A stretch of 64,000 bases of DNA from Candidatus Woesearchaeota archaeon (GTDB lineage Archaea; Nanobdellota; Nanobdellia; SCGC-AAA011-G17; JAGVZY01), in NCBI GenBank assembly GCA_018302225.1, contig JAGVZY010000010.1:6645-70644 (forward strand). The letters are read 5' to 3'. Shown here one piece after another: positions 4,510 through 43,291 of the stretch (its first letter is position 1; each line of letters opens with the position of its first letter). The position numbers and the translations under genes are program-made. The notes beneath the pieces are model-generated. The model was given only the letters and a program-made list of their open reading frames with translations. It ran no database searches and was not told the origin of the DNA.

Positions 4510-5273
4510 TGGTAGGAAGAGACAAAAAGTATAGGAAAAAGCAAGATACAGATATCAGAATGGGTATAGAAACAAAAAAACCATTTGATTTTGATAATTG
4601 GAAACCTAAGACTGCCTTGGGAAAACAAGTTAAAGCTAAAGAAATAAAAGATATTGATTATATTTTAAACAATGGCCTCAATATTATGGAAGCTGAAATT
4701 GTTGACGCTCTTTTACCAAACTTAGAACATGATTTATTATTATTTGGACAATCCAAAGGTAAATTCGGTGGTGGAAAAAGAAGTATTTGGAGACAAACTC
4801 AGAAAAAAACAAAAGAAGGAAACCGTCCTAGTTTTGCTGCAATGGCTTTAGTAGGAGATAAAGAGGGCCATATAGGTTTAGGATTTGGAAAAGCAAAAGA
4901 AACTGTTCCTGCAAGAGAAAAAGCAATCAGAAATGCTAAAGTAAATTTAATTAAAGTAGTCAAAGGTTGTGGTTCATGGGAGTGTGGTTGTAAACTACCT
5001 CACTCAGTACCTTATAGAGTCGAAGGAAAATGTGGTTCAGTTGAAGTTGCATTAATACCTGCTCCAAAAGGAACTGGTTTATGTATTGAAAAAGAACTTA
5101 AAAAAATACTTACTCATGCAGGAATTAAAGATATATATTCACAAACATTTGGACAAACAACAACAAAAATAAATTTTATTTATGCTTGCTTTGATGCTTT
5201 GAAAAATCTTTCAAAAATGAAACTTAGAGCAGGACAAAAAACAAAACTTGGAATTGAAGAAAAGGAAATATAA
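4509..5273 (+). CDS. rps5: 30S ribosomal protein S5 (uS5)
   Basis: FAAMALVGDKEGHIGLGFGKAKETVPAREKAIRNAK and the GTGL motif. Cluster order. Confidence 0.95.
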   Translation: MVGRDKKYRKKQDTDIRMGIETKKPFDFDNWKPKTALGKQVKAKEIKDIDYILNNGLNIMEAEIVDALLPNLEHDLLLFGQSKGKFGGGKRSIWRQTQKKTKEGNRPSFAAMALVGDKEGHIGLGFGKAKETVPAREKAIRNAKVNLIKVVKGCGSWECGCKLPHSVPYRVEGKCGSVEVALIPAPKGTGLCIEKELKKILTHAGIKDIYSQTFGQTTTKINFIYACFDALKNLSKMKLRAGQKTKLGIEEKEI

Positions 5274-12126: not shown

Positions 12127-12250
12127 CGGGCCTGGCAGGATTTGAACCTGCGACCTACTGCTTACTTCCTCCCATTTATTTGGGATGATAAACCTTTTCT
12201 AAAGGTTTATTTAGAAGGCAGTTGCGCTATCCAGGCTGCGCTACAGGCCC
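12127..12250 (-). tRNA. tRNA-Arg (UCU) with 49-nt intron at the canonical 37/38 position
   Basis: Acceptor GGGCCTG/CAGGCCC, D arm GCGC-AGCCTGGATA-GCGC, anticodon stem ACTGC...GCAGT, T arm GCAGG-TTCAAAT-CCTGC. Intron about 12163-12211. The anticodon region CTTC pairs with intron GGAAG (BHB-like). Confidence 0.85.
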
Positions 12251-31219: not shown

Positions 31220-31293
31220 AGCCCTGTAGTCTAGCCGGCCAAGGATGCGAGGCTCTGGACCTTGCGACTCAGGTTCAAATCCTGACGGGGCTA
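31220..31293 (+). tRNA. tRNA-Gln (CUG)
   Basis: Acceptor AGCCCTG/CGGGGCT (A1-U72, as in archaeal tRNA-Gln), anticodon arm CGAGG-CTCTGGA-CCTTG, T arm TCAGG-TTCAAAT-CCTGA. Confidence 0.85.
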
Positions 31294-31366
31294 TCCGTGT
31301 TGACATGACAATCGAGTGTGATCTGAATGCTTAGAATTCTGATAGCAAAATTGCCCCACATTTTGA
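31281..31366. repeat. 86-bp direct repeat, copy 1 (last 13 nt of tRNA-Gln plus 73 nt downstream)
   Basis: Matches 32988-33073 with 2 mismatches (read by eye). Confidence 0.9.
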
Positions 31367-31440
31367 ACGTGTGCGAAGATTCCATTTTAATGGCTAAACA
31401 TTACCTTTACTGAAAAAAGATGCGACACGTTAGCTGTGTT
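31351..31440 (+). ncRNA. Hairpin element S, copy 1 (plus-strand orientation; outer stem degenerate)
   Basis: ttgccccacattttgaacgtgtgcgaagattc...aaaaaagatgcgacacgtt resembles the reverse complement of 37409-37504 and 39521-39615. The inner stem aacgtgt/acacgtt is perfect. RNA versus MITE is unresolved. Confidence 0.45.
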
Positions 31441-31502
31441 AAAAAAATAAGGGGAAGATAATTTGCAGAAAGATTTAAATAAACTCAAATGGACTACAAT
31501 TT

Positions 31503-32042
31503 ATGGAAAAAAGATTTTCTATGGGCACTATAGGTATCTTACACCTTATTGTTTATTCTCTTCTTCTTATCATAATTACAGGCCTTATAATTAACTTAAT
31601 AATAAATAAAAAAATATTCGGAGCAATAATATTAATAAGTTTTAATTTTATTTTATTTCTACCTGCAGTTATTCTCCTTTTAACAAATAATAAAATTATA
31701 ATCCAAGAAGACAAAATAATATTTCCAAGACAAGCGAGGTATGATGGAAAATATGGATTTATAGGAGATTTAAATATTTTTGCTTTTATAAAAAAGAAAC
31801 CTATAATCTCCATTCAGGATATTACATTTCTAAGATATAATTATAATTACTTACCTGTAGTTATGTGTTCCGCAAAAGACCCCTTAAGAAATTTATTAAC
31901 TATAAATTCTAAAGTTTTAGGTAAAAAAAGTTTTACACTTATTCGATTTAATAAAACTAAAATTATAGAGCTCATAAAAAATTTAAAAAAAATGAATCCC
32001 TCAATTAAACTATCAAACGAATGTTCTAATTTGATTAATTGA
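31503..32042 (+). CDS. Hypothetical membrane protein (2 TM plus soluble domain)
   Basis: 179-aa ORF with two N-terminal hydrophobic spans. It is the only gene of the first cassette. Confidence 0.5.
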   Translation: MEKRFSMGTIGILHLIVYSLLLIIITGLIINLIINKKIFGAIILISFNFILFLPAVILLLTNNKIIIQEDKIIFPRQARYDGKYGFIGDLNIFAFIKKKPIISIQDITFLRYNYNYLPVVMCSAKDPLRNLLTINSKVLGKKSFTLIRFNKTKIIELIKNLKKMNPSIKLSNECSNLIN

Positions 32043-32115
32043 TAAAAAACCGTTCCTCCGATGTCACGCATCCAATGGTCTTTCTGACGAACTAACCTAA
32101 AAAAAAGAAAACAAA

Positions 32116-32216
32116 TCACTTAGTAAATATCTTAACTATTACTTGTTCAACTTCTTTGATTTTAGATTCTTTAAGAGAACCAGATTTATAAAAAATAATG
32201 GACTTATCTGCTGTAA
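32116..32216 (-). pseudogene. 3'-terminal fragment of a mazF/pemK-like toxin gene
   Basis: The 101 bp match mazF 34071-34171 with about 4 mismatches. Homology continues into the downstream junction (32084-32115 vs 34040-34070). No 5' part is present. Confidence 0.8.
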
Positions 32217-32225
32217 CTAAACTAA

Positions 32226-32627
32226 TTAAATAACTCTTATTGCTTCTTCAGGCGTTAAAATCTTAATATTCTCATACTCTTTCAATTTCAAAAGATGTTT
32301 ATCCTGACTAATTATGAAATCAACTTGTCCATAGACTGCAGCCCAAATAAATTTATCATCTTCAGGATCTTCCTTAACTATATTGGCACATATAGGGACA
32401 TCAATCATGATTGAATTTTCTAAAATAAGATTCTTCCATTCCTCAATTAGCTCTTTGTCCATAGAAATCTTAAAAGTTTTAAGAGTTTTTACTAATTCTT
32501 CTATAATCTCTTCAGAACTAATTAATTGAAATTTTCCTTCTTTCCATTTATTTATAATTTGAGAACAAAAATTGCCTTCCCAAAATATTCCAGAAATAAA
32601 AACATTTGTGTCTAAAACGACTCTCAT
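32226..32627 (-). CDS. vapC: PIN-domain toxin (VapC-like)
   Basis: MRVVLDTNVFISGIFW... with the acidic residues of the PIN fold (D5, E..E, D near ISQDKHLL). 4-nt overlap with the upstream antitoxin. Confidence 0.85.
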   Translation of the reverse strand: MRVVLDTNVFISGIFWEGNFCSQIINKWKEGKFQLISSEEIIEELVKTLKTFKISMDKELIEEWKNLILENSIMIDVPICANIVKEDPEDDKFIWAAVYGQVDFIISQDKHLLKLKEYENIKILTPEEAIRVI

Positions 32628-32896
32628 TTTTTTCTAGCTTCTTTTATAGCTTCTGTTACATCTACTTGTTTTAAATTCTTAAGTTTTGCAAAATCTCTAG
32701 TTTTTTTAAGCAATTTATCTATTCCATTAAAATTAGGCATTTCTAATTTCTTTAAAACAATAGTATTATCTTCGCCAATAATAACAAACTTCTCTCCTTC
32801 ATGTATTCTAAGCTTATCTCTTAGACTTTGAGGTATAACTACTTGTCCTCTTGAACTCATACTTGTTATTTCTAAATTTTCCATTTTGACCTCCAA
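32624..32896 (-). CDS. vapB: AbrB/SpoVT-family antitoxin (VapB-like)
   Basis: SSRGQVVIPQSLRDKLRIHEGEKFVIIGEDNTIVLKKL swapped-hairpin motif. Confidence 0.8.
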   Translation of the reverse strand: MEVKMENLEITSMSSRGQVVIPQSLRDKLRIHEGEKFVIIGEDNTIVLKKLEMPNFNGIDKLLKKTRDFAKLKNLKQVDVTEAIKEARKK

Positions 32897-32929
32897 TAAA
32901 TTTATACTATCAGTAAGATTATCTTATTT

Positions 32930-32987
32930 ATAAAGCTTTCTGTAATTTTACTAACAGTCCCTCTCAAGTCATGTTTCCTATAGATAA
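32930..32987. repeat. Junction module R3 (contains the BRE/TATA of vapB), copy 1
   Basis: ataaagctttctgtaattttactaacagtccctctcaagtcatgtttcctatagataa resembles 36570-36628 and, more loosely, 39363-39400. Confidence 0.8.
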
Positions 32988-33073
32988 CCTGACGGGGCTA
33001 TCCGTGTTGACATGACAATCGAGTGTGATCTGAATGCTTAGAATTCTGATAGCCAAATTGCCCCATATTTTGA
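32988..33073. repeat. 86-bp direct repeat, copy 2 (tRNA-Gln 3'-end duplicate; attR-like)
   Basis: cctgacggggcta... matches 31281-31366 except at two positions. Confidence 0.9.
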
Positions 33074-33080
33074 GATAACA

Positions 33081-33947
33081 TTAATCTTCCAATCTTATCC
33101 ACTTTTTTTCTTCAATCTTCTTTATAAGTTTAGAATACAAAGATCTATCAATCTTTTTTATTTGTTCTTGAATTTCCTGTTCTAAAGGAATACCGTACGC
33201 CTTACTTCTATTTAAACTCCAATTATAAACGATTGCAGCCATAGCATCAGTTGTTCTATCCGTCAATTGAGGAAATAGTTTATAAAAATTGGTCCTAATT
33301 TCTAAAGAAGAATACTCGGGATGAGCAACGGCTATTGCTAACCAAAACTCACTTTGAGTATTAGTCATAACTTTTATAAAATCTTTCCAAATAGGATTTT
33401 TTTTGAGTAAGTCTGTTTGTTGTTGATAACCGCACCAATAAAGACTGCGATTAGAAACTATATCTCCAACTAACCAAGGTTCATCAATTAATTCCACATG
33501 ATTTTGCGAATAATCATATCTTAATCCATCTAAATAATTCAAACATTGTCTTAATCCTTCTTTTCTTACTTCTCTATCTAATGCAGGATAAACGAAACCT
33601 AAAACATTAAACACTGGAACAATAGTATCTTGATTTGGTCCACCAGCCATAGATTCTCCAAATGCCCTATTAGAAGAGATATCTCTTATTCTTTCTATAT
33701 AGGATCTTAAATTCTTAACCGCCCTTAAGGGATTTTCAAAAAGTAAAGTTTGAAACTCTTGGGCGATAGAATTAGCCTTAGAATATTGTTCTCCTAAAAT
33801 TGAAACCATTTCTGAAATAAACTTTTGATCAAAGCTAAAATTATCAATTACTCCATTCTTTTTAAGACTGATTGAAGGGATCCGTTTTACTTTTGGTTCA
33901 GAAAGCTTCTTTTCCAATTCTTCCTTAAAATTTATTAGTATAACCAT
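33081..33947 (-). CDS. Hypothetical protein (288 aa), cassette cargo
   Basis: Long ORF preceded by conserved promoter module B. No recognisable family or catalytic motif. Confidence 0.55.
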   Translation of the reverse strand: MVILINFKEELEKKLSEPKVKRIPSISLKKNGVIDNFSFDQKFISEMVSILGEQYSKANSIAQEFQTLLFENPLRAVKNLRSYIERIRDISSNRAFGESMAGGPNQDTIVPVFNVLGFVYPALDREVRKEGLRQCLNYLDGLRYDYSQNHVELIDEPWLVGDIVSNRSLYWCGYQQQTDLLKKNPIWKDFIKVMTNTQSEFWLAIAVAHPEYSSLEIRTNFYKLFPQLTDRTTDAMAAIVYNWSLNRSKAYGIPLEQEIQEQIKKIDRSLYSKLIKKIEEKKWIRLED

Positions 33948-33968
33948 TGTTTAAAAGAACTAATTAAG

Positions 33969-34054
33969 ACTTATAAAACTAATCTCAAAATCGTCTCATT
34001 CTTCTCTCCACAATATATAAACAGAACTCCGAGGTATCTCTGACAAACCAACCC
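33969..34054. repeat. Junction module B, copy 1 (TATA 'cttataaaactaatct' ... 'aactccgaggtatctctgacaaaccaaccc')
   Basis: Both ends recur at 38157-38218 and 40381-40458. The middle is variable. Confidence 0.8.
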
Positions 34055-34070
34055 AAAAAAAGAAAACAAA

Positions 34071-34403
34071 TTACTTAGTAAACATCTTAACTATTACTTG
34101 TTCAACTTCTTTTATTTTAGATTCTTTAAGAGAACCAGATTTATAAAGAATAATGGACTTATCTGCTGTAAATAACCTATTAGGTCTAATTGAACTAGTC
34201 AAAGGCAAACTTCCCTTTTTAAAATCTTTATTGTTTAGAATCAAAAAATATTTATCCACTCTAGCTTCGCTAGTTATTTGACAGAGAATGATATCATCCC
34301 CTTCTAATTCAGCAACTACTAAAGCAGGTCTCTTTTTTGAATTACTCAAATCTGAAAATGGAAAAGGTAATACTACTACATCCCCTTTTACAAATTCTTC
34401 CAT
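34071..34403 (-). CDS. mazF: MazF/PemK-family toxin
   Basis: GDVVVLPFPFSDLSNSKKRPALVV...CQITS is the PemK signature. Confidence 0.85.
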   Translation of the reverse strand: MEEFVKGDVVVLPFPFSDLSNSKKRPALVVAELEGDDIILCQITSEARVDKYFLILNNKDFKKGSLPLTSSIRPNRLFTADKSIILYKSGSLKESKIKEVEQVIVKMFTK

Positions 34404-34645
34404 GCTTTTTCATCCTCTTTGCTATTCCAATCTTTAGCTAAAACCATTTCGCTAAACTTAAGAATATCTCTAAAATCATCTTTCATAGATTGTTCAACTT
34501 TTTGTGATTTTTCTAATAAAATCTTATTATCTAATTGTATAACTATTAACTCATCTCCTTGTTCTATTCCTAGAGTTTCTCGCATAGTTTGAGGAAGAGC
34601 AATTTGTCCTTTTTCAGATACTTTAATTGTTTTCATCATATTCAA
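34388..34645 (-). CDS. mazE: AbrB/MazE-family antitoxin
   Basis: VSEKGQIALPQTMRETLGIEQGDELIVIQLDNKILLEK. Overlaps the mazF start. Confidence 0.8.
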   Translation of the reverse strand: MNMMKTIKVSEKGQIALPQTMRETLGIEQGDELIVIQLDNKILLEKSQKVEQSMKDDFRDILKFSEMVLAKDWNSKEDEKAWKNL

Positions 34646-34665
34646 ATGTAAGAATATTCTTACTT

Positions 34666-34750
34666 ATAAAGCTTTCTATTTTTTAGATTATATTTCGATG
34701 GTCTCTCCTACATCACACAACAGGCTCACCCCCTGACAAACCACCCTAAA
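34666..34750. repeat. Junction module A, copy 1
   Basis: ataaagctttctattttttagattatatttcgatggtctctcctacatcacacaacaggctcaccccctgacaaaccaccc resembles 35912-35998. The partial copy is at 41433-41476. Confidence 0.85.
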
Positions 34751-34758
34751 AAACAGGT

Positions 34759-35280
34759 TTAATATGTATCTATAATCTCTTTAACCTTATTCACGAAGTT
34801 TATTGCTTTTCTCTGTAACCCCTCTGCTTCTTTTATATCAAAAAAGATTTTAGTTGAATAATTTGCCTCTTTTCTCTTTGCTTTATTCTTAATATAATCT
34901 AAAACTTCTTCCTTTTCTATAGCCACCTTACTAACTATTGCTATATCTTCTCTATCTAGTTTAATTTTGTAAAAATCTTTAATTAATATTAATAAAGTAG
35001 CTAAATGATTTTTTGTTGAATAGCCTTTTAACGCACACAATGCTAAAGACGCCTGATAAATAGAATAATAAGAAACAACAATTGCCCAATCATTAAATTC
35101 CTTTAATCCTAGAGTGGCTTGAAGAAACTTAAGATTATGATCTGCTTTTTCTATGTGACCTTTAACTAAAGCAGGAGTTTCAGTTTCTTTAGTTATTTTC
35201 TTGGATTTAAGATACTGATTGAAATCTCTATTTCTTCTTTCTTCACTTTCCAGCCATAGTTCCCAAAGCTCTTTAGTCAT
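34759..35280 (-). CDS. HEPN-domain protein (toxin partner of MNT)
   Basis: All-helical 173 aa with KGYSTKNH (Rx4-6H-like position). Overlaps the upstream nucleotidyltransferase gene. Confidence 0.7.
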   Translation of the reverse strand: MTKELWELWLESEERRNRDFNQYLKSKKITKETETPALVKGHIEKADHNLKFLQATLGLKEFNDWAIVVSYYSIYQASLALCALKGYSTKNHLATLLILIKDFYKIKLDREDIAIVSKVAIEKEEVLDYIKNKAKRKEANYSTKIFFDIKEAEGLQRKAINFVNKVKEIIDTY

Positions 35281-35878
35281 TTAATACCTCTTTGTAAAAC
35301 TGATCATTTCCCGATAATGGAAATCCTGTCTTTATTGCGTGAGTTATAACTTTATCTTCTTCTCTTAATATCTGTTCTTTAAAATAGTCAAAATTAATTA
35401 TAAAAGTTTGTATTTTAACTCCTGTTATTGCTTCTATATCTTTTTTAAGTTTTTGATCTTCAGATTCTTTTTTATTATAAACTAAAAGCAAGTCTATATC
35501 ACTTTCTTTTGAAAAAGTTCCTTTTGCAGTCGAACCGAAAAGGAGGGTGATTAAAGGTTTAATCTTAAGTTTATCTAATAAGTCGGTTATTGCCCTTCTT
35601 CTATCTAAAGGAAGTTCATTAAACTTTTTATAATCAAAATAAGCTAGAATAGCATAAAGTTGTTTATTTTTAGGATTTAACTTATAGAAAGTATTTCCTA
35701 TCTTTTTAGTACAAATTATAAGGTTGTTTGTTTGAAGATTCTTCAGATGTTTAAGAGTAGTATTCTGAGTTAGTTTTGTTTCTCTTAAAATCTCACTAAA
35801 ATAAAGCTCTTTAGTATAATTTCTATAAAAACAGGCTAATATCTTTTCTTTTCCGTTTCCGAATAATGTATTGTTCAT
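35273..35878 (-). CDS. Minimal nucleotidyltransferase (MNT) with N-terminal wHTH
   Basis: LLFGSTAKGTFSKESDIDLLLV (GSx10-ishDxD). N-terminal HTH-like segment about 90 aa. Confidence 0.8.
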   Translation of the reverse strand: MNNTLFGNGKEKILACFYRNYTKELYFSEILRETKLTQNTTLKHLKNLQTNNLIICTKKIGNTFYKLNPKNKQLYAILAYFDYKKFNELPLDRRRAITDLLDKLKIKPLITLLFGSTAKGTFSKESDIDLLLVYNKKESEDQKLKKDIEAITGVKIQTFIINFDYFKEQILREEDKVITHAIKTGFPLSGNDQFYKEVLND

Positions 35879-35911
35879 TTTATGTATAGCTTAGTACATT
35901 TAATGTACTAT

Positions 35912-35998
35912 ATAAATCTTTCTATTTTTTAGAGTATATTTCGATGGTCCCTCCTACATCACATCATAGGCTCACCCCCTGACGAACCAACCCAAAAA
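35912..35998. repeat. Junction module A, copy 2
   Basis: ataaatctttctattttttagagtatatttcgatggtccctcctacatcacatcataggctcaccccctgacgaaccaaccc. Confidence 0.85.
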
Positions 35999-36040
35999 AA
36001 CACTTATTAGCCTTACCCTAATTAAATCGAGGACAAAAAT

Positions 36041-36307
36041 TTAATCCCTATAAATTAAATCGTGATGATCGTAATCTTCAAAAAAAATTGTCTGATTTTG
36101 ATGATCTACTTTAAAAACTAAAACAAAATGTCCTATGTGGACTCTATTCAAGCTTTTCATATCATAAGTTAAAAATTTATAACTATGATTAGGATTTTCT
36201 AAAATAGAATCAATCTTTTTTCTAACTTGAAAATAATGCGTATTATCTTTCTTTTTGAGCTTAGCTAACTTTTTTACAATCTCTTCACTATAGCAATCTT
36301 TGTACAT
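36041..36307 (-). CDS. relE: RelE/ParE-superfamily toxin
   Basis: 88 aa: KKLAKLKKKD...KKIDSILENPNHSYKFLTYDMKSLNRVHIGHFVLVFKVDH, the archaeal RelE pattern. Confidence 0.7.
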   Translation of the reverse strand: MYKDCYSEEIVKKLAKLKKKDNTHYFQVRKKIDSILENPNHSYKFLTYDMKSLNRVHIGHFVLVFKVDHQNQTIFFEDYDHHDLIYRD

Positions 36308-36534
36308 TAAGATACCTCTTTTTCTAATTCCTCACGAGAAAAATGCTTTCCTTTTATAATTTTAGCTAATTTGATTTTATATTCAGGCCTTAATTCAGGT
36401 TCTAAAGAAAGTTGTTCATATTCAGTTACGACTATGTTTATTGCCTGAGACTTATCTCTTAAACCAAATTTTGCTTTTACTATGTTTAACACCCTGTTAG
36501 TATTTTCGTCTATATTTATCACAGCTTGTACCAT
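36307..36534 (-). CDS. Antitoxin (DUF2683-like)
   Basis: MVQAVINIDENTNRVLNIVKAKFGLRDKSQAINIVV. Its stop abuts the relE start. Confidence 0.6.
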   Translation of the reverse strand: MVQAVINIDENTNRVLNIVKAKFGLRDKSQAINIVVTEYEQLSLEPELRPEYKIKLAKIIKGKHFSREELEKEVS

Positions 36535-36569
36535 ATTACATCACGTATATAAGTATATATGTCTTATAT

Positions 36570-36702
36570 ATAAATCTTTCTGTAATTTTTGCCACAGTCC
36601 CTCTCAAGTCATGTTTCCCATAGATAACCTGACAGGGCTATAAACACTCGCGTGACATTCTAGGGACCATTTGTCCACAGCCCCTTAAATTCTAAATGTG
36701 AA
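36570..36702. repeat. Composite junction R3 + tRNA-3'-like core + R2, copy A (interrupted at 36702 by the IS)
   Basis: Resembles 39363-39474. The core cctgacagggcta is a degenerate tRNA-Gln 3' end. Confidence 0.85.
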
Positions 36703-37381
36703 CTACTCAGCACTAAAGTGCTGAGCGTCATTAGTTAAATTGAGCTAATCTTAATTGTTCTTTTCCATATTTATAATACTGATAATCAACTGCTTTCCAA
36801 TGTTTCTTTTGGCTATGTTCAACATAGAATCTTACGGAATCTTTTGTAACTGCATCAACAGTTCTATAAAAATATCCCGCACTCCAGAATTTTTTACCCC
36901 ATAACTTATTTTTAAGTAAATCTTTATGATATTTTCTTATCATATAAGATGAGAAACCTTTTAGCTCTCTGACTATTTTTTCTATACTATGCTTCTTCCA
37001 ATTACTAATAAAAATATGTCCATGGTCTGGTCCAAAGTCTATAGCAGGAATTACAAGACCAAGCTTTTCTGATTTTTCAAGGAGATATTTCTTTGTTAAT
37101 TCAAAAACCTTCTTATTCGCAAATACGTCTCTCCTGTATGCAGGAGTAATCTGCAAGTGTAGATTACTTTCTCCTACAGTTGAGCCCGTTTTAACTAATT
37201 CGTTTTTCATTTTTTTCTCCCGACGCAAAGTTTTTATAGAAAGACAGCTTACACTAATTGGTTTCTTTCAAGTAGCGTAGCGTCAACGCTACGTTACATT
37301 TTAGTATGTTTTAGAAGAAATACTTTACGCAATTCATCTCAGACCTAAAGGTATGAGTGTTCTTGTGCTAAAAGGTATAAA
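36703..37381 (-). mobile_element. IS200/IS605-family insertion sequence (tnpA only), about 679 bp
   Basis: Boundaries inferred from the uninterrupted paralogous site 39461-39485 (aaatatgaa|agccgaaat). No target duplication. Subterminal hairpins ctcagcac-taaa-gtgctgag (36706-36725) and tagcgtagcg-tcaa-cgctacgtta (37285-37308). Confidence 0.8.
36731..37228 (-). CDS. tnpA: IS200/IS605 Y1 (HUH) transposase TnpA
   Basis: HUH motif DHGHIFI and catalytic-Tyr region WSAGYFYRTVDAVT. The start may be ATG 37210. Confidence 0.9.
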   Translation of the reverse strand: MRREKKMKNELVKTGSTVGESNLHLQITPAYRRDVFANKKVFELTKKYLLEKSEKLGLVIPAIDFGPDHGHIFISNWKKHSIEKIVRELKGFSSYMIRKYHKDLLKNKLWGKKFWSAGYFYRTVDAVTKDSVRFYVEHSQKKHWKAVDYQYYKYGKEQLRLAQFN

Positions 37382-37504
37382 AGCCGAAATAAAAAATACC
37401 TCAAAAAGTTCCGCCACAAGGCCAACGTGTCGCATCTTTTTTTAGTGCAAGTAAATTATTACCTAAATTTTAGAATCTACGCACACATTAAAAACGTGGC
37501 GGAA
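37382..37504 (-). ncRNA. Linker plus hairpin element S, copy 2 (S = 37409-37504)
   Basis: On the minus strand: ttccgccac...gtggcggaa is a perfect 9-bp outer stem, and the inner stem aatgtgt/acacgtt has one G-U. About 50 nt downstream of the 193-aa ORF stop. Confidence 0.5.
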
Positions 37505-37554
37505 TAAATTTTAAGATAAAAGAAGAATTTATTGAATCTAGATCTTCAAGAAAA

Positions 37555-38136
37555 TTAATAGTCCTGCCACAACCAAGGTCTCTCTTTTCTTACCTCCATA
37601 AATAATTCAAAGCTAAGTTTGTCTTTCTTATCAGGAAGATAATTAGGAAATTTATTTACATCAAAATTCGGTTTATTAATCAAAAAGGTAAAAAATTCTG
37701 TTAAGTCTTCATCAACTAAAACATTTAACCCCCGTTCATAAGATCTTTTGGCTAATTTTTCAACACAATCCCACATATGAAATCCAGCGATTCTAATTAC
37801 TTTAACTATACCTAATTGATTAATTATATAATCTTGATTAGGATAGGAATAAGTTCCATCAGATTTTTTTGTAGTATGAGTTTTAAAATCCATCCCTACG
37901 TTTAGAATCTTATCCGATTCATGAAGTTCAATCATATCTGAAAGGGTAGTATCATTAAAAAGGGCATAATTTATATTAAAACCTTTTTGCCTATATCTCA
38001 AATCTATACATTGGTTTAAAAGAAGTTTATATTTTTGTTTAAACAAATCAGGTTCTTTTACATTCATCCAGCGCTTACACCCCAATTCAAAGTTTATTAT
38101 CTCTGGAATAGGATATAAAAATACAAACTCTTGCAT
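37555..38136 (-). CDS. Hypothetical protein (193 aa), weakly isochorismatase/cysteine-hydrolase-like
   Basis: IRIAGFHMWDCVEKLAKRSYERGLNVLVDEDL resembles the G...CV...A...G..V.V..D core. Other catalytic residues were not identified. Confidence 0.4.
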   Translation of the reverse strand: MQEFVFLYPIPEIINFELGCKRWMNVKEPDLFKQKYKLLLNQCIDLRYRQKGFNINYALFNDTTLSDMIELHESDKILNVGMDFKTHTTKKSDGTYSYPNQDYIINQLGIVKVIRIAGFHMWDCVEKLAKRSYERGLNVLVDEDLTEFFTFLINKPNFDVNKFPNYLPDKKDKLSFELFMEVRKERPWLWQDY

Positions 38137-38156
38137 ATCTAATTATTAATATTTAA

Positions 38157-38218
38157 ACTTATAAAACTAATCTAGATATATAAATAACACTCCAAGGTAT
38201 CTCTGACCAACTAAAACC
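38157..38218. repeat. Junction module B, copy 2
   Basis: acttataaaactaatct...acactccaaggtatctctgaccaactaaaacc. Confidence 0.8.
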
Positions 38219-38265
38219 GAAAGATATATAAATAACCAATATCTTGGTTTATATAACCCAATAAA

Positions 38266-38895
38266 GTGGTTAATATGATAACTCAAAAACAATTCAAAAT
38301 ATTTGGGATATTCGCAAGTAAACCTTTTGTAGAACATACCCGAAACGAAATAAAAAAAGAACTAAAAGAAAAGTCTAATAATGCTCTAGCTTTAACTATC
38401 AACCTATTAAAAAAAGAAGAAGTCCTAATTGAAAAAAAAGTTGGAAAATCTGGTCTTCTAACCCTTAATTTAAACAAAGATTTAACCTTTTCTTATCTCG
38501 AATTATGGAGTTTATCCAAACTTCCCCATTTAGCTAAACTTTCTCTGGAAACCTTAAAAAAAGAAATTACTGAAAACACCCCATTTTATTCCTTAGTTAT
38601 CTTTGGTTCTTATGCTATAAATCAACAAAAGGATAACTCGGATTTAGATATTGCAATTTTTATTGAAAAGGAAAACAATAAAAAGCAAATAGAAGCTTTA
38701 GTGAATAGTGCAAAATTAAAAAGTACAATTGAAATAGATGCACATATTATCCCAAAATCAGAGATGATTGAAATGCTTACAAATAAAGAAGAAAACTTAG
38801 GAAAACAAATAGCACGAAAACATTTAGCTTATTATAATAATAGGATATTTTATGAAATAATCAAAGAAGGGAGGGATCATGGATTTAGGATATAA
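38266..38895 (+). CDS. Minimal nucleotidyltransferase (MNT) with N-terminal wHTH
   Basis: VIFGSYAINQQKDNSDLDIAIFI. The start may be ATG 38275. Confidence 0.8.
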   Translation: MVNMITQKQFKIFGIFASKPFVEHTRNEIKKELKEKSNNALALTINLLKKEEVLIEKKVGKSGLLTLNLNKDLTFSYLELWSLSKLPHLAKLSLETLKKEITENTPFYSLVIFGSYAINQQKDNSDLDIAIFIEKENNKKQIEALVNSAKLKSTIEIDAHIIPKSEMIEMLTNKEENLGKQIARKHLAYYNNRIFYEIIKEGRDHGFRI

Positions 38896-39352
38896 AATTT
38901 ATCTTGCACGAGCTCAGAACGAATTAAACCTTTCAATGATAGTTCAAAAAATAAGTGATAATAAGAAACTACAAATTGAAGTGTTTGAAATGAAAGAAGA
39001 TACTTATTATAGCGCAGCTATTTCTCATGCTTACTATTCAATATTTTATGCTGCAAAAGCTTATCTTTTATTAAAGAATATAAAGACTCTGGCGCCTGAA
39101 GAACATAGAAAAACCTTTGAAGAATTCTCAAAGCTCGTAAACAAAGGTATAATTGATGTAGAATTACTCAGAATCTATCAAAGTATGCTTATCAAAGCAG
39201 ATACGCTTCTAAATATATTTGAACTAGAAAAAGGAAAAAGAGGAAAGTTCACTTATAGAAGAATACCTCAAGCAAATCAAGAACCTGCGCAAGAAAGTAT
39301 AAAAAATGCACAAATATTTTTTAAGAATATATTTAGATTATGTGAGAAATAA
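38879..39352 (+). CDS. HEPN-domain protein
   Basis: All-helical, AISHAYYSIFYAAKAYLL...APEEHRKT. Overlaps the MNT stop. Confidence 0.7.
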   Translation: MDLGYKIYLARAQNELNLSMIVQKISDNKKLQIEVFEMKEDTYYSAAISHAYYSIFYAAKAYLLLKNIKTLAPEEHRKTFEEFSKLVNKGIIDVELLRIYQSMLIKADTLLNIFELEKGKRGKFTYRRIPQANQEPAQESIKNAQIFFKNIFRLCEK

Positions 39353-39362
39353 TAGCCTTATT

Positions 39363-39474
39363 TTGCCACAGTCTCCCAAGTCATATTTCTTCTAAATAAG
39401 CTGACGGGACTATAAACACTCGCGTGACATTCGAGGAACCATTTCCTCACAACTCCTTAAATTCTAAATATGAA
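39363..39474. repeat. Composite junction R3' + tRNA-3'-like core + R2, copy B (uninterrupted)
   Basis: gccacagtctcccaagtcatatttcttctaaataagctgacgggactataaacactcgcgtgacattcgagg...ttaaattctaaatatgaa. Confidence 0.85.
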
Positions 39475-39615
39475 AGCCGAAATAAAAAAATACCTCAAAA
39501 AGTGGATTTTGAGCTGAGAATTCCGCCACAAGGCCAACGTGTCGCATCTTTTTTTAGTGCAAGTAAATTATTACCTAAATTTTAGAATCTACGCACACAT
39601 TCAAAACGTGGCAGG
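39475..39615 (-). ncRNA. Linker plus hairpin element S, copy 3 (S = 39521-39615)
   Basis: Near-identical to copy 2. The single outer-stem change gives U-G on the minus strand and C-A on the plus strand. Confidence 0.5.
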
Positions 39616-39667
39616 AGAAAGTTGAAAATAAAAGAGAAATTAAATGTAGATATTAAGCTTATAAATT

Positions 39668-40360
39668 TTATTTAGTTAATTTAATTTCTGCAAGTTGTCT
39701 ATTAAGAATTACATAAAGAGGAATATAACCATTTCCAAAGTTTTCATGAATATAACCTAAAACCTTCATTTGTGGCAACTTCTCTCTTGCCGAGATTTTA
39801 TTAATCTCATCTTCTATTAATGGATCATTGTTCTTAATTCTTTGAGACAGTTCTTCAAAGCTCAATTTGCTTCCAGTTCTATAAAAATCTATTTCTTCTA
39901 AAGATCTATCTATCCTACTTAATCTTTGAGTATATAATTGAACTTGCTTTTCAGATTTTAATGCCCCAACAGGATAATCTCCTTTTTGTAATAAACTTCT
40001 CGGCGTTCCTTTCCATTCAGATCCTAAGGTAACAATACCATAAGAAGAACTTAAAATTTTAGCTATATTATAATTAATATATCTCGAATTTAAATTAATT
40101 TTATCTAACTTAGACCAAATCGCAATAATTTCTAAAGATTCAAAGTTAAAATCATTAATTCTTTCCACTTCGTCCGCAAAATCCCCTAAGTTAGCACAAA
40201 TATAATCCTGAGCTTCAGAATTATTCTTTTCCTTTAAATTTTTAGCAATATCAATTATCTTTATTTGATAGTTATTCAAAAGAGTTATAACTGGATGTTC
40301 TTCAAAGCCTCTTAAATTCAAGGCATTATTCACTTCTGAATCTGTAAGGGGTAAGTTCAT
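39668..40360 (-). CDS. Hypothetical protein (230 aa), cassette cargo
   Basis: Long ORF behind promoter module B. No family recognised. Confidence 0.55.
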   Translation of the reverse strand: MNLPLTDSEVNNALNLRGFEEHPVITLLNNYQIKIIDIAKNLKEKNNSEAQDYICANLGDFADEVERINDFNFESLEIIAIWSKLDKINLNSRYINYNIAKILSSSYGIVTLGSEWKGTPRSLLQKGDYPVGALKSEKQVQLYTQRLSRIDRSLEEIDFYRTGSKLSFEELSQRIKNNDPLIEDEINKISAREKLPQMKVLGYIHENFGNGYIPLYVILNRQLAEIKLTK

Positions 40361-40380
40361 AATTTAAAAAATGATTCAAG

Positions 40381-40458
40381 CTTTATAAAACTAATCTAAA
40401 AACCCTATCCGTGAGATTTGAATAGAACTCCGAGGTATCTCTAACAACCAACCCAACC
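40381..40458. repeat. Junction module B, copy 3 (core CTAAC)
   Basis: ctttataaaactaatct...agaactccgaggtatctctaacaaccaacccaacc. Confidence 0.8.
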
Positions 40459-40520: not shown

Positions 40521-40745
40521 ATGGTAAATGTAACATTAGCTATTCCCGTAGAATTAAAACAAAAGATGGATTTATTCAATGAAATTAATTGGAGTGCTGT
40601 TGCAAGGCAAGCATTTGACGAAAAAATAAACGATTTAGAATTCATCAAAAAGTTTAAAGCAAAAAGTATAGTTACAGAAAGAGATACTTTAGAATGGGGT
40701 AAAAAGTTAAATAAAAGTTTGGCAAAAAGAAGGTACTCCGTCTAA
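40521..40745 (+). CDS. Antitoxin-like small protein (RHH/VapB-like)
   Basis: MVNVTLAIPVELKQKMD...NWSAVARQAFDEKI. Stops 1 nt before the PIN gene. Confidence 0.6.
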   Translation: MVNVTLAIPVELKQKMDLFNEINWSAVARQAFDEKINDLEFIKKFKAKSIVTERDTLEWGKKLNKSLAKRRYSV

Positions 40746-40746
40746 A

Positions 40747-41136
40747 ATGGACTTAATCGTAGATGCTAATATTCTTTTTTCTATTTTAATTAAACAAGGA
40801 AAGACCGAAGAACTTATTTTTAAAAATGAATTTCATCTTTTTACTCCAGAATATATTTTTGAAGAATTTGAAAAACATAAATCAGAAATTATAGAAAAAA
40901 CACAAAGAAATTCTGAAGATTTTAATAATTTGACGAATATATTGAAAAAGAGAATAAATACTATTAGTAATGAAGAAACTGAAAGATTTATTATGGCCGC
41001 TAAAAAAATAAGCCCAGATCCAGATGATATTGATTATTTTGCCTTGGCATTGAAAATTAAATGCCCCATTTGGAGTCAAGATAAAAAGCTTAAATTGCAA
41101 AAAAAGATTATAAAATATACTCTACAGAAGAAATAG
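40747..41136 (+). CDS. PIN-domain protein (VapC-like toxin)
   Basis: MDLIVDANILFSILIK...TPEYIFEEF...DPDDIDYFALAL...SQDKKL. Confidence 0.75.
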   Translation: MDLIVDANILFSILIKQGKTEELIFKNEFHLFTPEYIFEEFEKHKSEIIEKTQRNSEDFNNLTNILKKRINTISNEETERFIMAAKKISPDPDDIDYFALALKIKCPIWSQDKKLKLQKKIIKYTLQKK

Positions 41137-41170
41137 TGAAGTTATTTGAATAAAAAAAGAAGTAAATAAT

Positions 41171-41383
41171 ATGATTCAAAATAAAAGAAAATTAAAAAAG
41201 ACCTTATGGGTATTTACCTTATTTTATTTAATAGGATTAATAATTGGTTTGGGTCTAATCTTTTCAATGTCCAACGCCCCAACTACCAAAAATATAATTT
41301 TTATTTTAGTTCTAGACTTTGTTATTATGGGCACAATTACCTATCTCTACATTTGGAAAGAGCTCCCAACAATTGGAATTTAG
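41171..41383 (+). CDS. Small two-TM membrane protein (70 aa)
   Basis: Hydrophobic spans LWVFTLFYLIGLIIGLGLIF and IIFILVLDFVIMGTITYLYIW. Confidence 0.45.
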   Translation: MIQNKRKLKKTLWVFTLFYLIGLIIGLGLIFSMSNAPTTKNIIFILVLDFVIMGTITYLYIWKELPTIGI

Positions 41384-41432
41384 TTAATTCAGATATCGAA
41401 AAAAACCTTCCCTCGAATGTCACGCATCCGGG

Positions 41433-41476
41433 GGTCTCTCCTACATCACACAACAGGCTCACTGTCTGACGAAACG
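41433..41476. repeat. Junction module A, partial copy 3 (right end of the cassette region)
   Basis: ggtctctcctacatcacacaacaggctcactgtctgacgaaacg. It is preceded by tcgaatgtcacgcatcc, a motif also at 32058-32074 and, inverted, in both R2 copies. Confidence 0.75.
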
Positions 41477-41836: not shown

Positions 41837-42109
41837 ATGACTAAAACAACTTGGTATATTTACATTCTAGAATGTCTTGATGGTTCTTATTACACTGGTG
41901 TCACAAACAACCTAGAAAAAAGAATGAAAACCCATCAATCTGGAAAAGGAAGTAAATATGTAAAAAGAAAAGGATTTAACCATTTAATCACCTCCTCCAA
42001 ATGCAAAGACAAATCAGATGCATGCAAAAAAGAATATTTAATTAAACAACTTCCAAAACATGAAAAATTAAAATTTTTAAAAAATCTAAGTCTTAATCCC
42101 ATTATTTGA
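41837..42109 (+). CDS. GIY-YIG nuclease superfamily protein
   Basis: WYIYILECLDGSYYTGVTNNLEKRMKTHQSGKGSKY. Confidence 0.85.
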   Translation: MTKTTWYIYILECLDGSYYTGVTNNLEKRMKTHQSGKGSKYVKRKGFNHLITSSKCKDKSDACKKEYLIKQLPKHEKLKFLKNLSLNPII

Positions 42110-43291
42110 TTTGTTATTATAATCTATAAATATCCAGTTTAATATTCCTAAACTAGTTATAGCTAATAAAGCCAAAACAAAAGCCATTTCGAAAACATTT
42201 GCGGCAAAATACAAAACAGTCAAAGTAACCGCATGTGCAAACATATAACCAAAATTCCTATAAGTTGAAGTATCTAAAAGAGATTTTTGATGTCTATCTT
42301 TAACTAACCTAGCATCCAAAGGCACCATAATAAATAATACACCTAATTCAGCAAAGACTAGTGTCACATACAAAAAGATTCTTGTCAATTCTGAAATATT
42401 TTGTATTCTTAATAACCAAATTATTGCAATCCAAAATGCACCTAAAATAATAAATTTAGATTTGCCCCATTTATCGGCTAACTTACCTATAACAATAGTC
42501 GTAGACATAGCTACAATCGCAATTATTGTAGGCATTATACCTACACTTTCAAAACTTAAAAAAGTTATAAAAACAAATATAGGAATAATCGTATATTCAA
42601 CAGTATAATCTATACCTAAAAAGAAAATTGTCAACAAATTTATTCTATTTTTAGTTTGTTTTAAAAAATCAAAAACCCCATCAACCACCTTAGGCTTCAA
42701 ATGATCCATTTTTATTCTAGATAAAGGAATTAAAGAAGTCAATAACATTAAACTACTTAAAATAACTAAATATTGTTTATTTAAAAATATTAAAAAACCA
42801 GCACCCACTAAAGGAGCAACTAAACCTCCTGTCTGCCTTACAACCATTAAAAATCCAACTTGTTTTCCGACTCCAGCCCTTGGATGAACACATTCATTAA
42901 ATACAAACCAGTGTGCAACCCAATAAAATGAATCTGCTATAGCTAGACAAATTGCCAATGCAACCAACAAGGGCCAGTCATAGTTAGTGGGATATAATAA
43001 CAAAAAACTTCCTATATGCGCAATAATTGCGATAATAATTGTTTTCTTTGCACCATACCAAATAACAAATTTTCTTGCTAAAAAATTAAGTGCAACATCA
43101 GTTGCATTAAAAATAATCAGAAACAAAATGACTTGCTTTAATGGAAATCCCGCACTTAATAATAAAATCGGAATAAATATGCTTACTAAACTTACTCCAA
43201 TAGTATACAACCAGATAGAAAACTCTAATTTAGACAAATCTGACTTAAAATATTTATAGAAATTTGCATAATAATGTTTTAGTACTCTCAT
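42086..43291 (-). CDS. MFS-type transporter
   Basis: 401 aa, about 12 hydrophobic segments in 6+6 organisation. Family assignment by architecture only. Confidence 0.6.
   Translation of the reverse strand: MRVLKHYYANFYKYFKSDLSKLEFSIWLYTIGVSLVSIFIPILLLSAGFPLKQVILFLIIFNATDVALNFLARKFVIWYGAKKTIIIAIIAHIGSFLLLYPTNYDWPLLVALAICLAIADSFYWVAHWFVFNECVHPRAGVGKQVGFLMVVRQTGGLVAPLVGAGFLIFLNKQYLVILSSLMLLTSLIPLSRIKMDHLKPKVVDGVFDFLKQTKNRINLLTIFFLGIDYTVEYTIIPIFVFITFLSFESVGIMPTIIAIVAMSTTIVIGKLADKWGKSKFIILGAFWIAIIWLLRIQNISELTRIFLYVTLVFAELGVLFIMVPLDARLVKDRHQKSLLDTSTYRNFGYMFAHAVTLTVLYFAANVFEMAFVLALLAITSLGILNWIFIDYNNKSNNGIKT

Follow-up and report, generated by a model that had tools for sequence, protein, structure and literature searches.

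Introduction

Successive integrations stacked at a single tRNA gene, with partial tRNAs scattered among them, have been documented (bioRxiv 10.1101/2020.12.28.424599), elements flanked by attachment (att) sites and lacking an integrase are known as cis-mobilizable elements (CIMEs) (PMC5704250), and integrons and clusters of attC sites exist in archaea, Nanoarchaeota included (PMC9668308). Here we analyze a locus that recalls all three, located in a 64,000-nt stretch (hereafter the window; assembly GCA_018302225.1, contig JAGVZY010000010.1, positions 6,645 to 70,644) of a Candidatus Woesearchaeota archaeon. It is an island of about 10–11 kb (31281 to ~41470) adjoining the gene for tRNA-Gln(CUG), and it is made of four related integrase-less units of 1.7–3.6 kb. 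The locus probably arose as CIME-like mini-elements, themselves not autonomous, accreted in tandem and site-specifically at the 3' end of the tRNA through a recombinase acting in trans.

Like the tRNA islands described elsewhere (Islander-type islands, the tycheposons of Prochlorococcus and the ssrA islands of Dehalococcoides), the locus has an intact tRNA at one end and displaced 3' fragments of it as direct repeats, with a pattern of older elements pushed distally, decaying att remnants and presence or absence within one population (PMC4383910; bioRxiv 10.1101/2020.12.28.424599; PMC3146451). The intact tRNA, the displaced 3' copies (at 32988, 36628 and 39400) and polymorphism with exact boundaries were all found here, whereas no integrase, excisionase or replication gene lies inside any of the four units. 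These units are, moreover, tiny, they follow a fixed plan of cargo gene plus toxin-antitoxin (TA) operons, and they contain internal sites sharing a core of 5–7 nt. The CIMEs of Streptococcus, which accrete with integrative and conjugative or mobilizable elements (ICEs and IMEs), also keep attL and attR, lack integration genes, form tandem arrays at the 3' end of a tRNA and need a foreign integrase (PMC5704250); retained att ends and absent integration and transfer genes are likewise what we observed. However, CIMEs are decayed bacterial ICEs or IMEs, usually of many kilobases, whereas the compact common design of the four units, for which no partner element is known, looks like that of a non-autonomous family rather than of random decay. 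The differences from both CIMEs and tRNA islands are the miniature scale, the common design, the further core sites within units and the DPANN host. Integrons and clusters of attC sites lacking integron-integrases (CALINs) resemble the island as small, TA-rich cassette arrays with a short invariant core in a single orientation at every junction, proximal turnover and no adjacent integrase (PMC9668308). Here, by contrast, the point of insertion lies in a tRNA gene, R''/R' boxes, a significant hairpin and IntI are all lacking, and the cassettes, which occur in either orientation, have promoters of their own. Since attC boxes are absent, the hairpins are not significant and the cassettes have their own promoters, the locus is not an integron, though it may work like one.

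Two other systems deserve comparison. SSV-type integration in Sulfolobus takes a tRNA as its target and leaves tRNA sequence directly repeated at either end. The archaeal host, the tRNA target and the terminal repeats are shared, but SSV-type insertion leaves the N- and C-terminal parts of a divided integrase gene at the two borders, whereas no integrase fragment flanks the units here: the annotated island proteins gave no integrase match, no integrase-like open reading frame (ORF) was found at or over any core copy, and the sole ORF of at least 45 aa over a core copy outside the tRNA is an unscanned and spurious-looking frame of 53 aa (36482–36643). Integrative mobile elements exploiting Xer (IMEX) likewise lack an integrase, pile up at a single chromosomal site and rely on a recombinase of the host (Xer at dif); the target here is a tRNA 3' end rather than dif, and neither an Xer gene nor a dif site was identified at the locus. 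Membership of the SSV-type, IMEX or repetitive extragenic palindrome (REP)-associated systems fails in each case on a defining feature.

Results

An 86-nt direct repeat begins inside tRNA-Gln

The tRNA-Gln(CUG) gene (anticodon CTG in the DNA; 31220–31293, plus strand; ARAGORN and Rfam, 55.4 bits) is intact. Its last 13 nt, CCTGACGGGGCTA (31281–31293, plus strand), which span the 3' strand of the T-stem from its first base, the 3' strand of the acceptor stem and the discriminator, constitute the putative attachment core. With this core begins an 86-nt direct repeat that extends 73 nt past the end of the tRNA. Its two plus-strand copies, 31281–31366 and 32988–33073, are 98% identical, are spaced by 1707 nt and differ only at repeat positions 67 (A/C) and 79 (C/T). 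Copy 1 comprises the core and the right arm R1 of the first unit (E1) and forms, with the tRNA body, an attL-like arrangement of tRNA body, core and R1, and copy 2 comprises the core and the R1 arm of the second unit (E2). The first-pass annotation of the window had reported this repeat with its two differences, its start in the T-arm and its division into 13 nt of tRNA and 73 nt beyond, and a repeat search together with the sequence itself bore all of this out; ORF and domain scans likewise recovered the content that it had given for E1, namely a membrane-protein gene, a mazF fragment and vapBC, with no integrase.

When up to two mismatches were allowed, the 13-mer was found four times in the window, always on the plus strand and always in the island (31281, 32988, 36628 and 39400), against 0.07 occurrences expected, and none of 100 shuffled sequences reached four. 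The two distal copies, 36628–36640 (CCTGACAGGGCTA, one mismatch) and 39400–39412 (GCTGACGGGACTA, two mismatches), are each followed by a second arm module, R2 (36601–36702 versus 39373–39474, 83% identity), which aligns loosely with R1 and is a diverged homologue of it. Both degenerate copies and the weak likeness of R2 to R1 had been noticed at first pass, and they hold, with the second copy beginning at 39400. Neither the repeat nor any related motif occurs elsewhere in the window, in ~17 kb more of the contig or in distant relatives, as would not be the case for an ordinary dispersed repeat scattered over unrelated loci, the outcome that the earlier annotation had named as speaking against it.

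The four cores delimit the units E1 (31281–32987), E2 (32988–36627), E3 (36628–39399) and E4 (39400 to ~41470), whose spacings of 1707, 3640 and 2772 nt were recovered independently as separate repeat families. The units share one plan: core, right arm, one cargo gene, an internal CTGAC site, one to three TA operons and a left (P) arm. The right arm is R1 in E1 and R2 in E3 and E4, with R1 again in E2, and in E1, E3 and E4 it is followed by a hairpin module (M) of ~100 nt. E1 and E2 resemble each other in their P arms (85% over 94 nt) and R1 arms (98%), and E3 and E4 in R2 (83%) and in their version of the hairpin module, M' (91%).

Strains of one population differ next to the tRNA

The same strain (at least 99.9% identity) was found in more than 30 contigs of Rifle-type groundwater metagenomes. 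The population comparison therefore drew on public assemblies of this same population, with contigs from at least six samples produced by MEGAHIT-style (k127, k141) and JGI pipelines, and the variant assemblies share flanks that are at least 99.9% identical. In one of them (L011, a scaffold assembly of unknown k-mer size), the tRNA-Gln gene is followed by a single 86-nt repeat of the copy-2 type and then by the 288-aa cargo gene of E2, so that exactly 1707 bp are absent. This is the empty or excised junction that had been proposed as a check at first pass, position 31280 being joined to the equivalent of 33074 with one repeat between E1's neighbors. Two other contigs from two samples (L024, k = 127; L057, k = 141) carry a foreign, B-like left arm (see below) joined to CCTGAC, R1, M and the 179-aa cargo gene at the same nucleotide, and both k-mer sizes exceed the length of the 86-nt repeat. 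A third left arm is joined at the same nucleotide (|CCTGAC) in L058. Finally, in L013 (k = 141), what follows the tRNA, R1 and M is the end of another gene, located on the minus strand and with a C-terminus of HNH-like appearance.

The distal 9 kb showed no variant in contigs found from the right flank (seven places aligned, with 17 more listed as the same), and contigs found from vapC revealed no new right context. Turnover is concentrated next to tRNA-Gln, and this confinement of the variation in inserts to the tRNA-proximal end is to be expected if the tRNA has served repeatedly as an attachment site. As the tRNA-adjacent insert differs between related strains, the site appears to be still in use, though no integrase gene lies nearby.

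Junction sites share a short core in a single orientation

The pentamer CTGAC occurs 24 times on the plus strand of the window and 12 times in the 11-kb island, 10 of these in intergenic junctions, and GTCAG has no occurrence in the island. Extended to yCTGACr, it is the sole sequence common to every site, and it has a single orientation. The sequences to its left fall into families, with strong similarity within families and weak similarity between them: A (32989, 36629 and 39401), B/D (34733, 35979, 41466 and 32084, plus the foreign arm of L024 and L057) and C (34040, 38203 and 40441). To its right stand GGGGCTA and R1, a GGGGCTA-like tail and R2 (AGGGCTA at 36629, GGGACTA at 39401), a shared tail_B (RAACYAACCY followed by an A-run; 15–17 of 24 positions identical) or, at 41466, unique sequence. 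Left and right parts are found in several combinations: three kinds of right part follow B-type left arms, the left arms that precede tail_B are of types B, C and D, and four left contexts, namely the tRNA and the A, E and F left arms, are joined to core-R1. The arm families thus form a mosaic with its breakpoints at the yCTGACr core.

The A and B/D arms are captured by the pattern GTCYCTCY-N4-TCA-N16-YCTGAC, which (one mismatch allowed) has six occurrences, all on the plus strand of the island, against 0.00 expected, a statistic that is partly circular because the pattern was derived from these very sequences. At site J7, inverted arms (GTCCCTCTCAAGTCA / TGACATTCTAGGGAC) are centred on the core, and the A-type site includes an imperfect palindrome of 26 nt. 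The left arms were considered as decayed tRNA bodies and this was rejected, as their semi-global alignment to the tRNA was no better than that of shuffled sequences at 10 of 11 sites; since they are unlike the tRNA body, the homology to the tRNA starts exactly at CCTGAC. The idea that tail_B is the 3' end of another tRNA was also discarded, as no tRNA of the window ends in this way.

A mazEF operon of another Nanoarchaeote, 79% identical to that of the island, lacks these junction motifs, and so the motifs belong to the island backbone and not to the TA genes. Immediately upstream of that operon (L072, 8826–10333, on a 409-kb contig of JGI 3300028274) lies a gene for a 275-aa Xer-like tyrosine recombinase; no CTGAC junction motif was seen there, and a 48-nt direct repeat (at 4539 and 8211) is located nearby. 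The mazF homologues were abandoned as a lead to similar islands, the Xer-adjacent one being without these sites and without a nearby tRNA-Gln.

The mosaic raises the possibility, tentative in our judgment, that the locus is an integron-like cassette platform unrelated to IntI/attC, in which tRNA-Gln is the equivalent of attI and all yCTGACr sites are live. Such a platform, which extends the accretion model rather than opposing it, would have single operons of 0.65–1.7 kb, mostly TA, as its mobile units and at least three interchangeable arm families, with a recombinase in trans capturing the units at the 3' strand of the T-stem and acceptor stem of tRNA-Gln and excising and reshuffling them. 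About ten one-operon segments bounded by the core in one orientation, and the mosaic of left and right arms with breakpoints at the core, are consistent with it, and one and the same mazF 3' end, tail_B included, stands next to a D-type arm at 32084 and next to a C-type arm at 34040, although these two sites (J2 and J4) could also reflect a segmental duplication. Variation restricted to the tRNA-proximal end would correspond to that at attI, and TA cassettes are typical of chromosomal integrons, with integrase-less attC clusters known in archaea (PMC9668308). Moreover, one variant contig (L080) ends 4 nt before the core of J2, and a scaffold gap lies over J4. Against these points, RYYYAAC...GTTRRRY pairs 40–150 nt apart number zero on either strand of the island, and duplexes between the core strand and the upstream arm were no more stable than those of shuffled sequences (z averaging −0.63, with 0.05 as the best single p). 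Class A sites do fold as attC-like hairpins would, yet because the duplex test against shuffles was not significant overall, such hairpins are not claimed. No IntI was detected in the scanned ORFs of the window or in the flanking contig, the cassettes come with promoters of their own and in both orientations, none of the population variants breaks at an internal B, C or D site, and a metagenome scan for the B-site pattern was empty.

Homologous deletion, dispersed repeats and assembly artefacts

Without any site-specific recombination, the island could be a static, decaying product of segmental duplication and illegitimate recombination, and L011 a homologous deletion mediated by RadA. We regard this as improbable. 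The 86 nt at 98% identity are an adequate substrate, the copy-2 type of the repeat in L011 is what a crossover anywhere in the first 66 nt would give, the recombinase search of the contig was negative, and illegitimate deletion does occur here: the mazF fragment in E1 is fused directly to the vapC stop codon, with no junction site between them, and this fusion is the trace of such a deletion in the island. However, three foreign left contexts and the tRNA meet R1 at the same nucleotide with no common sequence to the left, and junctions at the same nucleotide without left homology cannot be produced by homologous recombination. The repeated unit also starts at a structural boundary of the tRNA and has four copies in one orientation with graded decay, and the architecture of the units is kept though their cargo genes are unrelated.

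A further explanation makes the junctions a dispersed family like REPs or miniature inverted-repeat transposable elements (MITEs), spread by the Y1 transposase of an IS200/IS605-type insertion sequence (IS) present in the island, the likeness to a tRNA being incidental. This IS (36694–37401, minus strand) encodes a Y1 TnpA (36731–37228) and no TnpB and has a hairpin close to each end (CTCAGCACTAAAGTGCTGAG; GTAGCGTAGCGTCAACGCTAC). Set beside the intact R2 of E4, the R2 of E3 proves to be split by the IS between TAAATGTG and AAAGCCG, and the IS is present in every contig covering the insertion site. Apart from the transposase gene itself and short palindromes in some junctions, the evidence makes this spread very unlikely: the motifs occur nowhere outside the island in the window or the additional contig sequence, all copies are on one strand, the TnpA passes the IS200 model while reaching 22.8 bits with the REP_Tyr_transpos model against a cut-off of 80, and both the insertion point (TAAATGTG/AAAGCCG) and the end hairpins are unlike the junctions. 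On the last two grounds the IS200 transposase was also rejected as the recombinase of the island and is treated as a passenger.

That the repeat or the variants are artefacts of assembly is scarcely credible, because, while many contigs break at or near the repeats and L011 is a scaffold of unknown k-mer size, the two-copy arrangement is seen at 99.9% identity or more in contigs of at least six samples from more than one assembly pipeline, and contigs built with k = 127 and k = 141 span the entire repeat.

Searches for a recombinase and a parent element

The source contig reaches 6.7 kb to the left and 10 kb to the right of the window, ~80 kb in all. No recombinase was recognized among the window ORFs scanned or read by eye, nor in these two flanks, and an autonomous parent with the same arms was not found in IMG/VR, INPHARED, PLSDB or the JGI metagenome collection. 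The R1 and R2 patterns gave 0 matches, and the 19 matches to the junction pattern in IMG/VR, all single, were set aside as chance-like in appearance. Viral contigs held no relatives of the 179-aa and 230-aa cargo proteins, and blastn against phages and plasmids returned no match. In the metagenome collection, the 22-nt tRNA 3' end had 0 matches and so had the B-site pattern; the collection is evidently without this organism.

Gene content of the four units

The TA operons of the island are type II and comprise vapBC, mazEF, MNT/HEPN pairs (twice), a relE/parE-like pair and a second vapBC. The cargo proteins (179, 288, 193 and 230 aa) belong to no detectable family, and the only pair compared, 288 aa versus 230 aa, is unrelated; searched as hidden recombinase or defence genes in Pfam, NCBIfam and PADLOC, they gave no match. 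Besides tRNA-Gln, no Rfam family was detected in the island.

In E1, a degenerate copy of module M, a hairpin bounded by inverted repeats (31350–31439, plus strand), precedes the cargo gene (31503–32042, plus strand), which encodes a 179-aa membrane ORFan with no Pfam match and a 99%-identical variant as its sole database relative. Internal site J2 follows (32044–32107, plus strand), with a D-type left arm, the core CTGAC at 32084–32088 and the tail GAACTAACCT plus an A-run. The mazF 3' fragment (32108–32215, minus strand) consists of the last 34 codons, and its DNA is 91–95% identical to the mazF at 34071; this gene end and its downstream junction are duplicated (32108–32228 versus 34033–34182, 91–95%). 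Next comes vapBC (32226–32896, minus strand), composed of a PIN_3 toxin (32226–32627) and a MazE/AbrB-type antitoxin (32624–32896). The P arm of E1 (32897–32987, plus strand) contains a minus-strand palindromic operator and a putative promoter, recognized from its sequence as a TATA-like box with a TFB-recognition element (BRE), AGAAAGCTTTATAAATA, followed by the A-type left arm GTCCCTCTCAAGTCA-N16.

E2 begins with the second R1 arm, which ends 7 nt inside the left inverted repeat of M. Its 288-aa cargo protein (33081–33947, minus strand) is of unknown function and belongs to an unannotated family with homologues of 36–50% identity in DPANN archaea and in one Moranbacteria genome of the candidate phyla radiation (CPR). 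These homologues were rejected as a lead to similar islands, since each is invariably a lone gene in an unrelated housekeeping neighborhood, a pattern suggestive of patchy transfer. J4 (33990–34063, plus strand) has a C-type left arm, its core at 34040–34044 and the tail AAACCAACCC plus an A-run, and is followed by mazEF (34071–34645, minus strand; PemK toxin 34071–34403, MazE antitoxin 34388–34645). J5 (34665–34756, plus strand), with a B-type left arm, its core at 34733–34737 and the tail AAACCACCCT plus an A-run, precedes an MNT-type TA pair (34759–35878, minus strand) made of a 201-aa nucleotidyltransferase and a 173-aa partner with no Pfam match. The B-type site J6 (35911–36002, plus strand; core 35979–35983) is followed by an 88-aa ParE/RelE-like toxin, with a weak Pfam match, and a 75-aa antitoxin candidate (36041–36534, minus strand). 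The A-type site J7 (36548–36693, plus strand) comprises the P arm of E2, the core with one mismatch (36628–36640) and the start of the R2 of E3.

Beyond the IS, E3 carries the module M' (37409–37534), a long hairpin with its highest stability on the minus strand (z = −5.2) and with U-runs after it. The 193-aa cargo protein of this unit (37555–38136, minus strand) shows only a sub-threshold, isochorismatase-like match. The C-type site J8 (38151–38216, plus strand; core 38203–38207) and a TA pair of MNT (209 aa) and HEPN (157 aa) proteins (38266–39352, plus strand) come next, and the A-type site J9 (39353–39520, plus strand) comprises the decayed P arm of E3, the core with two mismatches (39400–39412) and the R2 of E4. 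In E4, M' (39521–39646, minus strand) again forms a hairpin on the minus strand (z = −3.7), followed by U-runs, and precedes the gene for a 230-aa cargo protein of unknown function (39668–40360, minus strand). The C-type site J10 (40363–40454, plus strand) has a decayed core, CTAAC (40441–40445), and is followed by vapBC (VapB-like, 74 aa; PIN_2, 129 aa) with a membrane ORF of 70 aa (40521–41383, plus strand). The distal-most site, J11 (41400–41470, plus strand; core 41466–41470), with a left arm that is D-like plus B-type and with unique sequence to its right, is likely the terminal, attR-like end of the island. Just past it, a 90-aa stand-alone GIY-YIG nuclease gene (41837–42109, plus strand) overlaps by 24 nt, 3' end to 3' end, with an MFS transporter gene (42086–43291, minus strand).

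Module M (~100 nt) is bounded by the inverted repeats TCCGCCAC...GTGGCGGA, and another copy is found in L013 at about 140–250. The inner ~80 nt are inverted in the 31350 copy and in L013 relative to the copies at 37409 and 39521, with the flank AAATTTTAAGATAAAAGAAGAA unchanged, and three homology breakpoints fall on the arms of M. The module may be a segment that can invert, a structure belonging to a terminator or 3'UTR, or a second hotspot of recombination.

On the minus strand, the left arms bear putative promoters with BRE/TATA-like boxes, and palindromic operators predicted from sequence. Perfect or near-perfect palindromes (e.g. GTAAGAATATTCTTAC, TAGTACATTTAATGTACTA) lie between the TATA-like box and the start codon of each minus-strand TA operon (32897–32950, 34646–34680, 35879–35925 and 36535–36575), and from their sequence and position they are likely antitoxin operators. 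In one variant (L020, JGI 3300025015), the nucleotidyltransferase gene has an in-frame deletion of 21 nt (35344–35364) and the 193-aa cargo gene one of 33 nt (38007–38039), and in L080 the 288-aa gene is split into two; decay of cargo and toxin genes seems to be under way in some strains.

Around the island, the window has a G+C content of ~29%, and window and contig contain archaeal housekeeping genes (a ribosomal protein cluster, SecY, topoisomerase VI, MCM, RFC and TBP). Rfam also called a tRNA of 124 nt, missed by ARAGORN, directly upstream of tRNA-Cys (12127–12250, minus strand); inspected by eye, it reads as a tRNA-Arg(UCU) whose anticodon loop is interrupted, at the canonical position, by an intron of ~50 nt.

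Discussion

The model that we favour explains the locus as follows. E1 would be a 1.7-kb non-autonomous integrative element, its ends marked by the 86-nt repeat, that entered the 3' end of tRNA-Gln(CUG) by conservative site-specific recombination, the tRNA being kept whole by the inserted copy of its last 13 nt. E1 would also be the youngest of four head-to-tail units, each newcomer entering the regenerated tRNA and displacing the older ones distally. Successive entry at the tRNA would lead to the decay of the core with distance (0, 1 and 2 mismatches), a gradient that would then reflect age, and would give internal A-type junctions the look of a full attP (P, core, P') and the tRNA junction that of an attL (B, core, P'). 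The identity over 73 nt past the tRNA would be the shared P' arm of the two youngest sibling units. The exchange may take place within yCTGACr, which has the size of a tyrosine-recombinase overlap region, and the enzyme acting in trans would most likely be a tyrosine integrase from elsewhere in the genome or from a co-resident virus or plasmid. The TA operons would hold the units in place after integration.

The interpretation offered at first pass is supported in its essentials and modified in two respects. Its attL/attR reading of the repeat agrees with L011 and with the alternative junctions, but the 73 nt beyond the tRNA are a shared R1 arm and not part of an att core. Its view of tandem islands with decaying att remnants also stands, with a finer structure than had been claimed, as the four units are subdivided by CTGAC-core sites.

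Several observations pull in the opposite direction. L011 could be a mis-join through the 66-nt identical stretch, and the 86-nt repeat is long enough for homologous recombination to yield the same deletion; the event that separates L011 from the other assemblies may, moreover, have been either an insertion or an excision. Local alignment of A-type and B-type left arms was not significant, and for this reason the internal sites, which may or may not be active, could be unrelated to the tRNA-type sites beyond the pentamer. The negative searches for a recombinase in the contig and for an autonomous parent in the databases count here too. The closest GTDB genomes are metagenome-assembled genomes (MAGs) of Nanoarchaeota/Woesearchaeota, with a protein identity of just 39–54% (flanking protein), and since the nearest genomes are only ~50% identical in protein they offer no true ancestral empty site for comparison; in one relative (L004, 3712–4603; 49% protein identity), tRNA-Gln(CUG) lies, island-free, 19 nt from the 3' end of the same DegT-like gene, in a gene order that is rearranged with respect to the window. 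Finally, the fetched contigs contained no circle junction, and because neither this nor an integrase was found, we infer the current mobility of the units.

DPANN genomes are tiny and little is known of how they acquire genes, and this locus represents a compact route for it that is active at the population level. Mini-elements, each with one cargo gene and its own TA modules, stack at a single tRNA, and their turnover is seen between samples of one aquifer. If the internal CTGAC sites are active, the island would constitute a second, independently evolved cassette-capture system besides integrons, and its recombinase could be searched for and tested by means of the precisely mapped sites.

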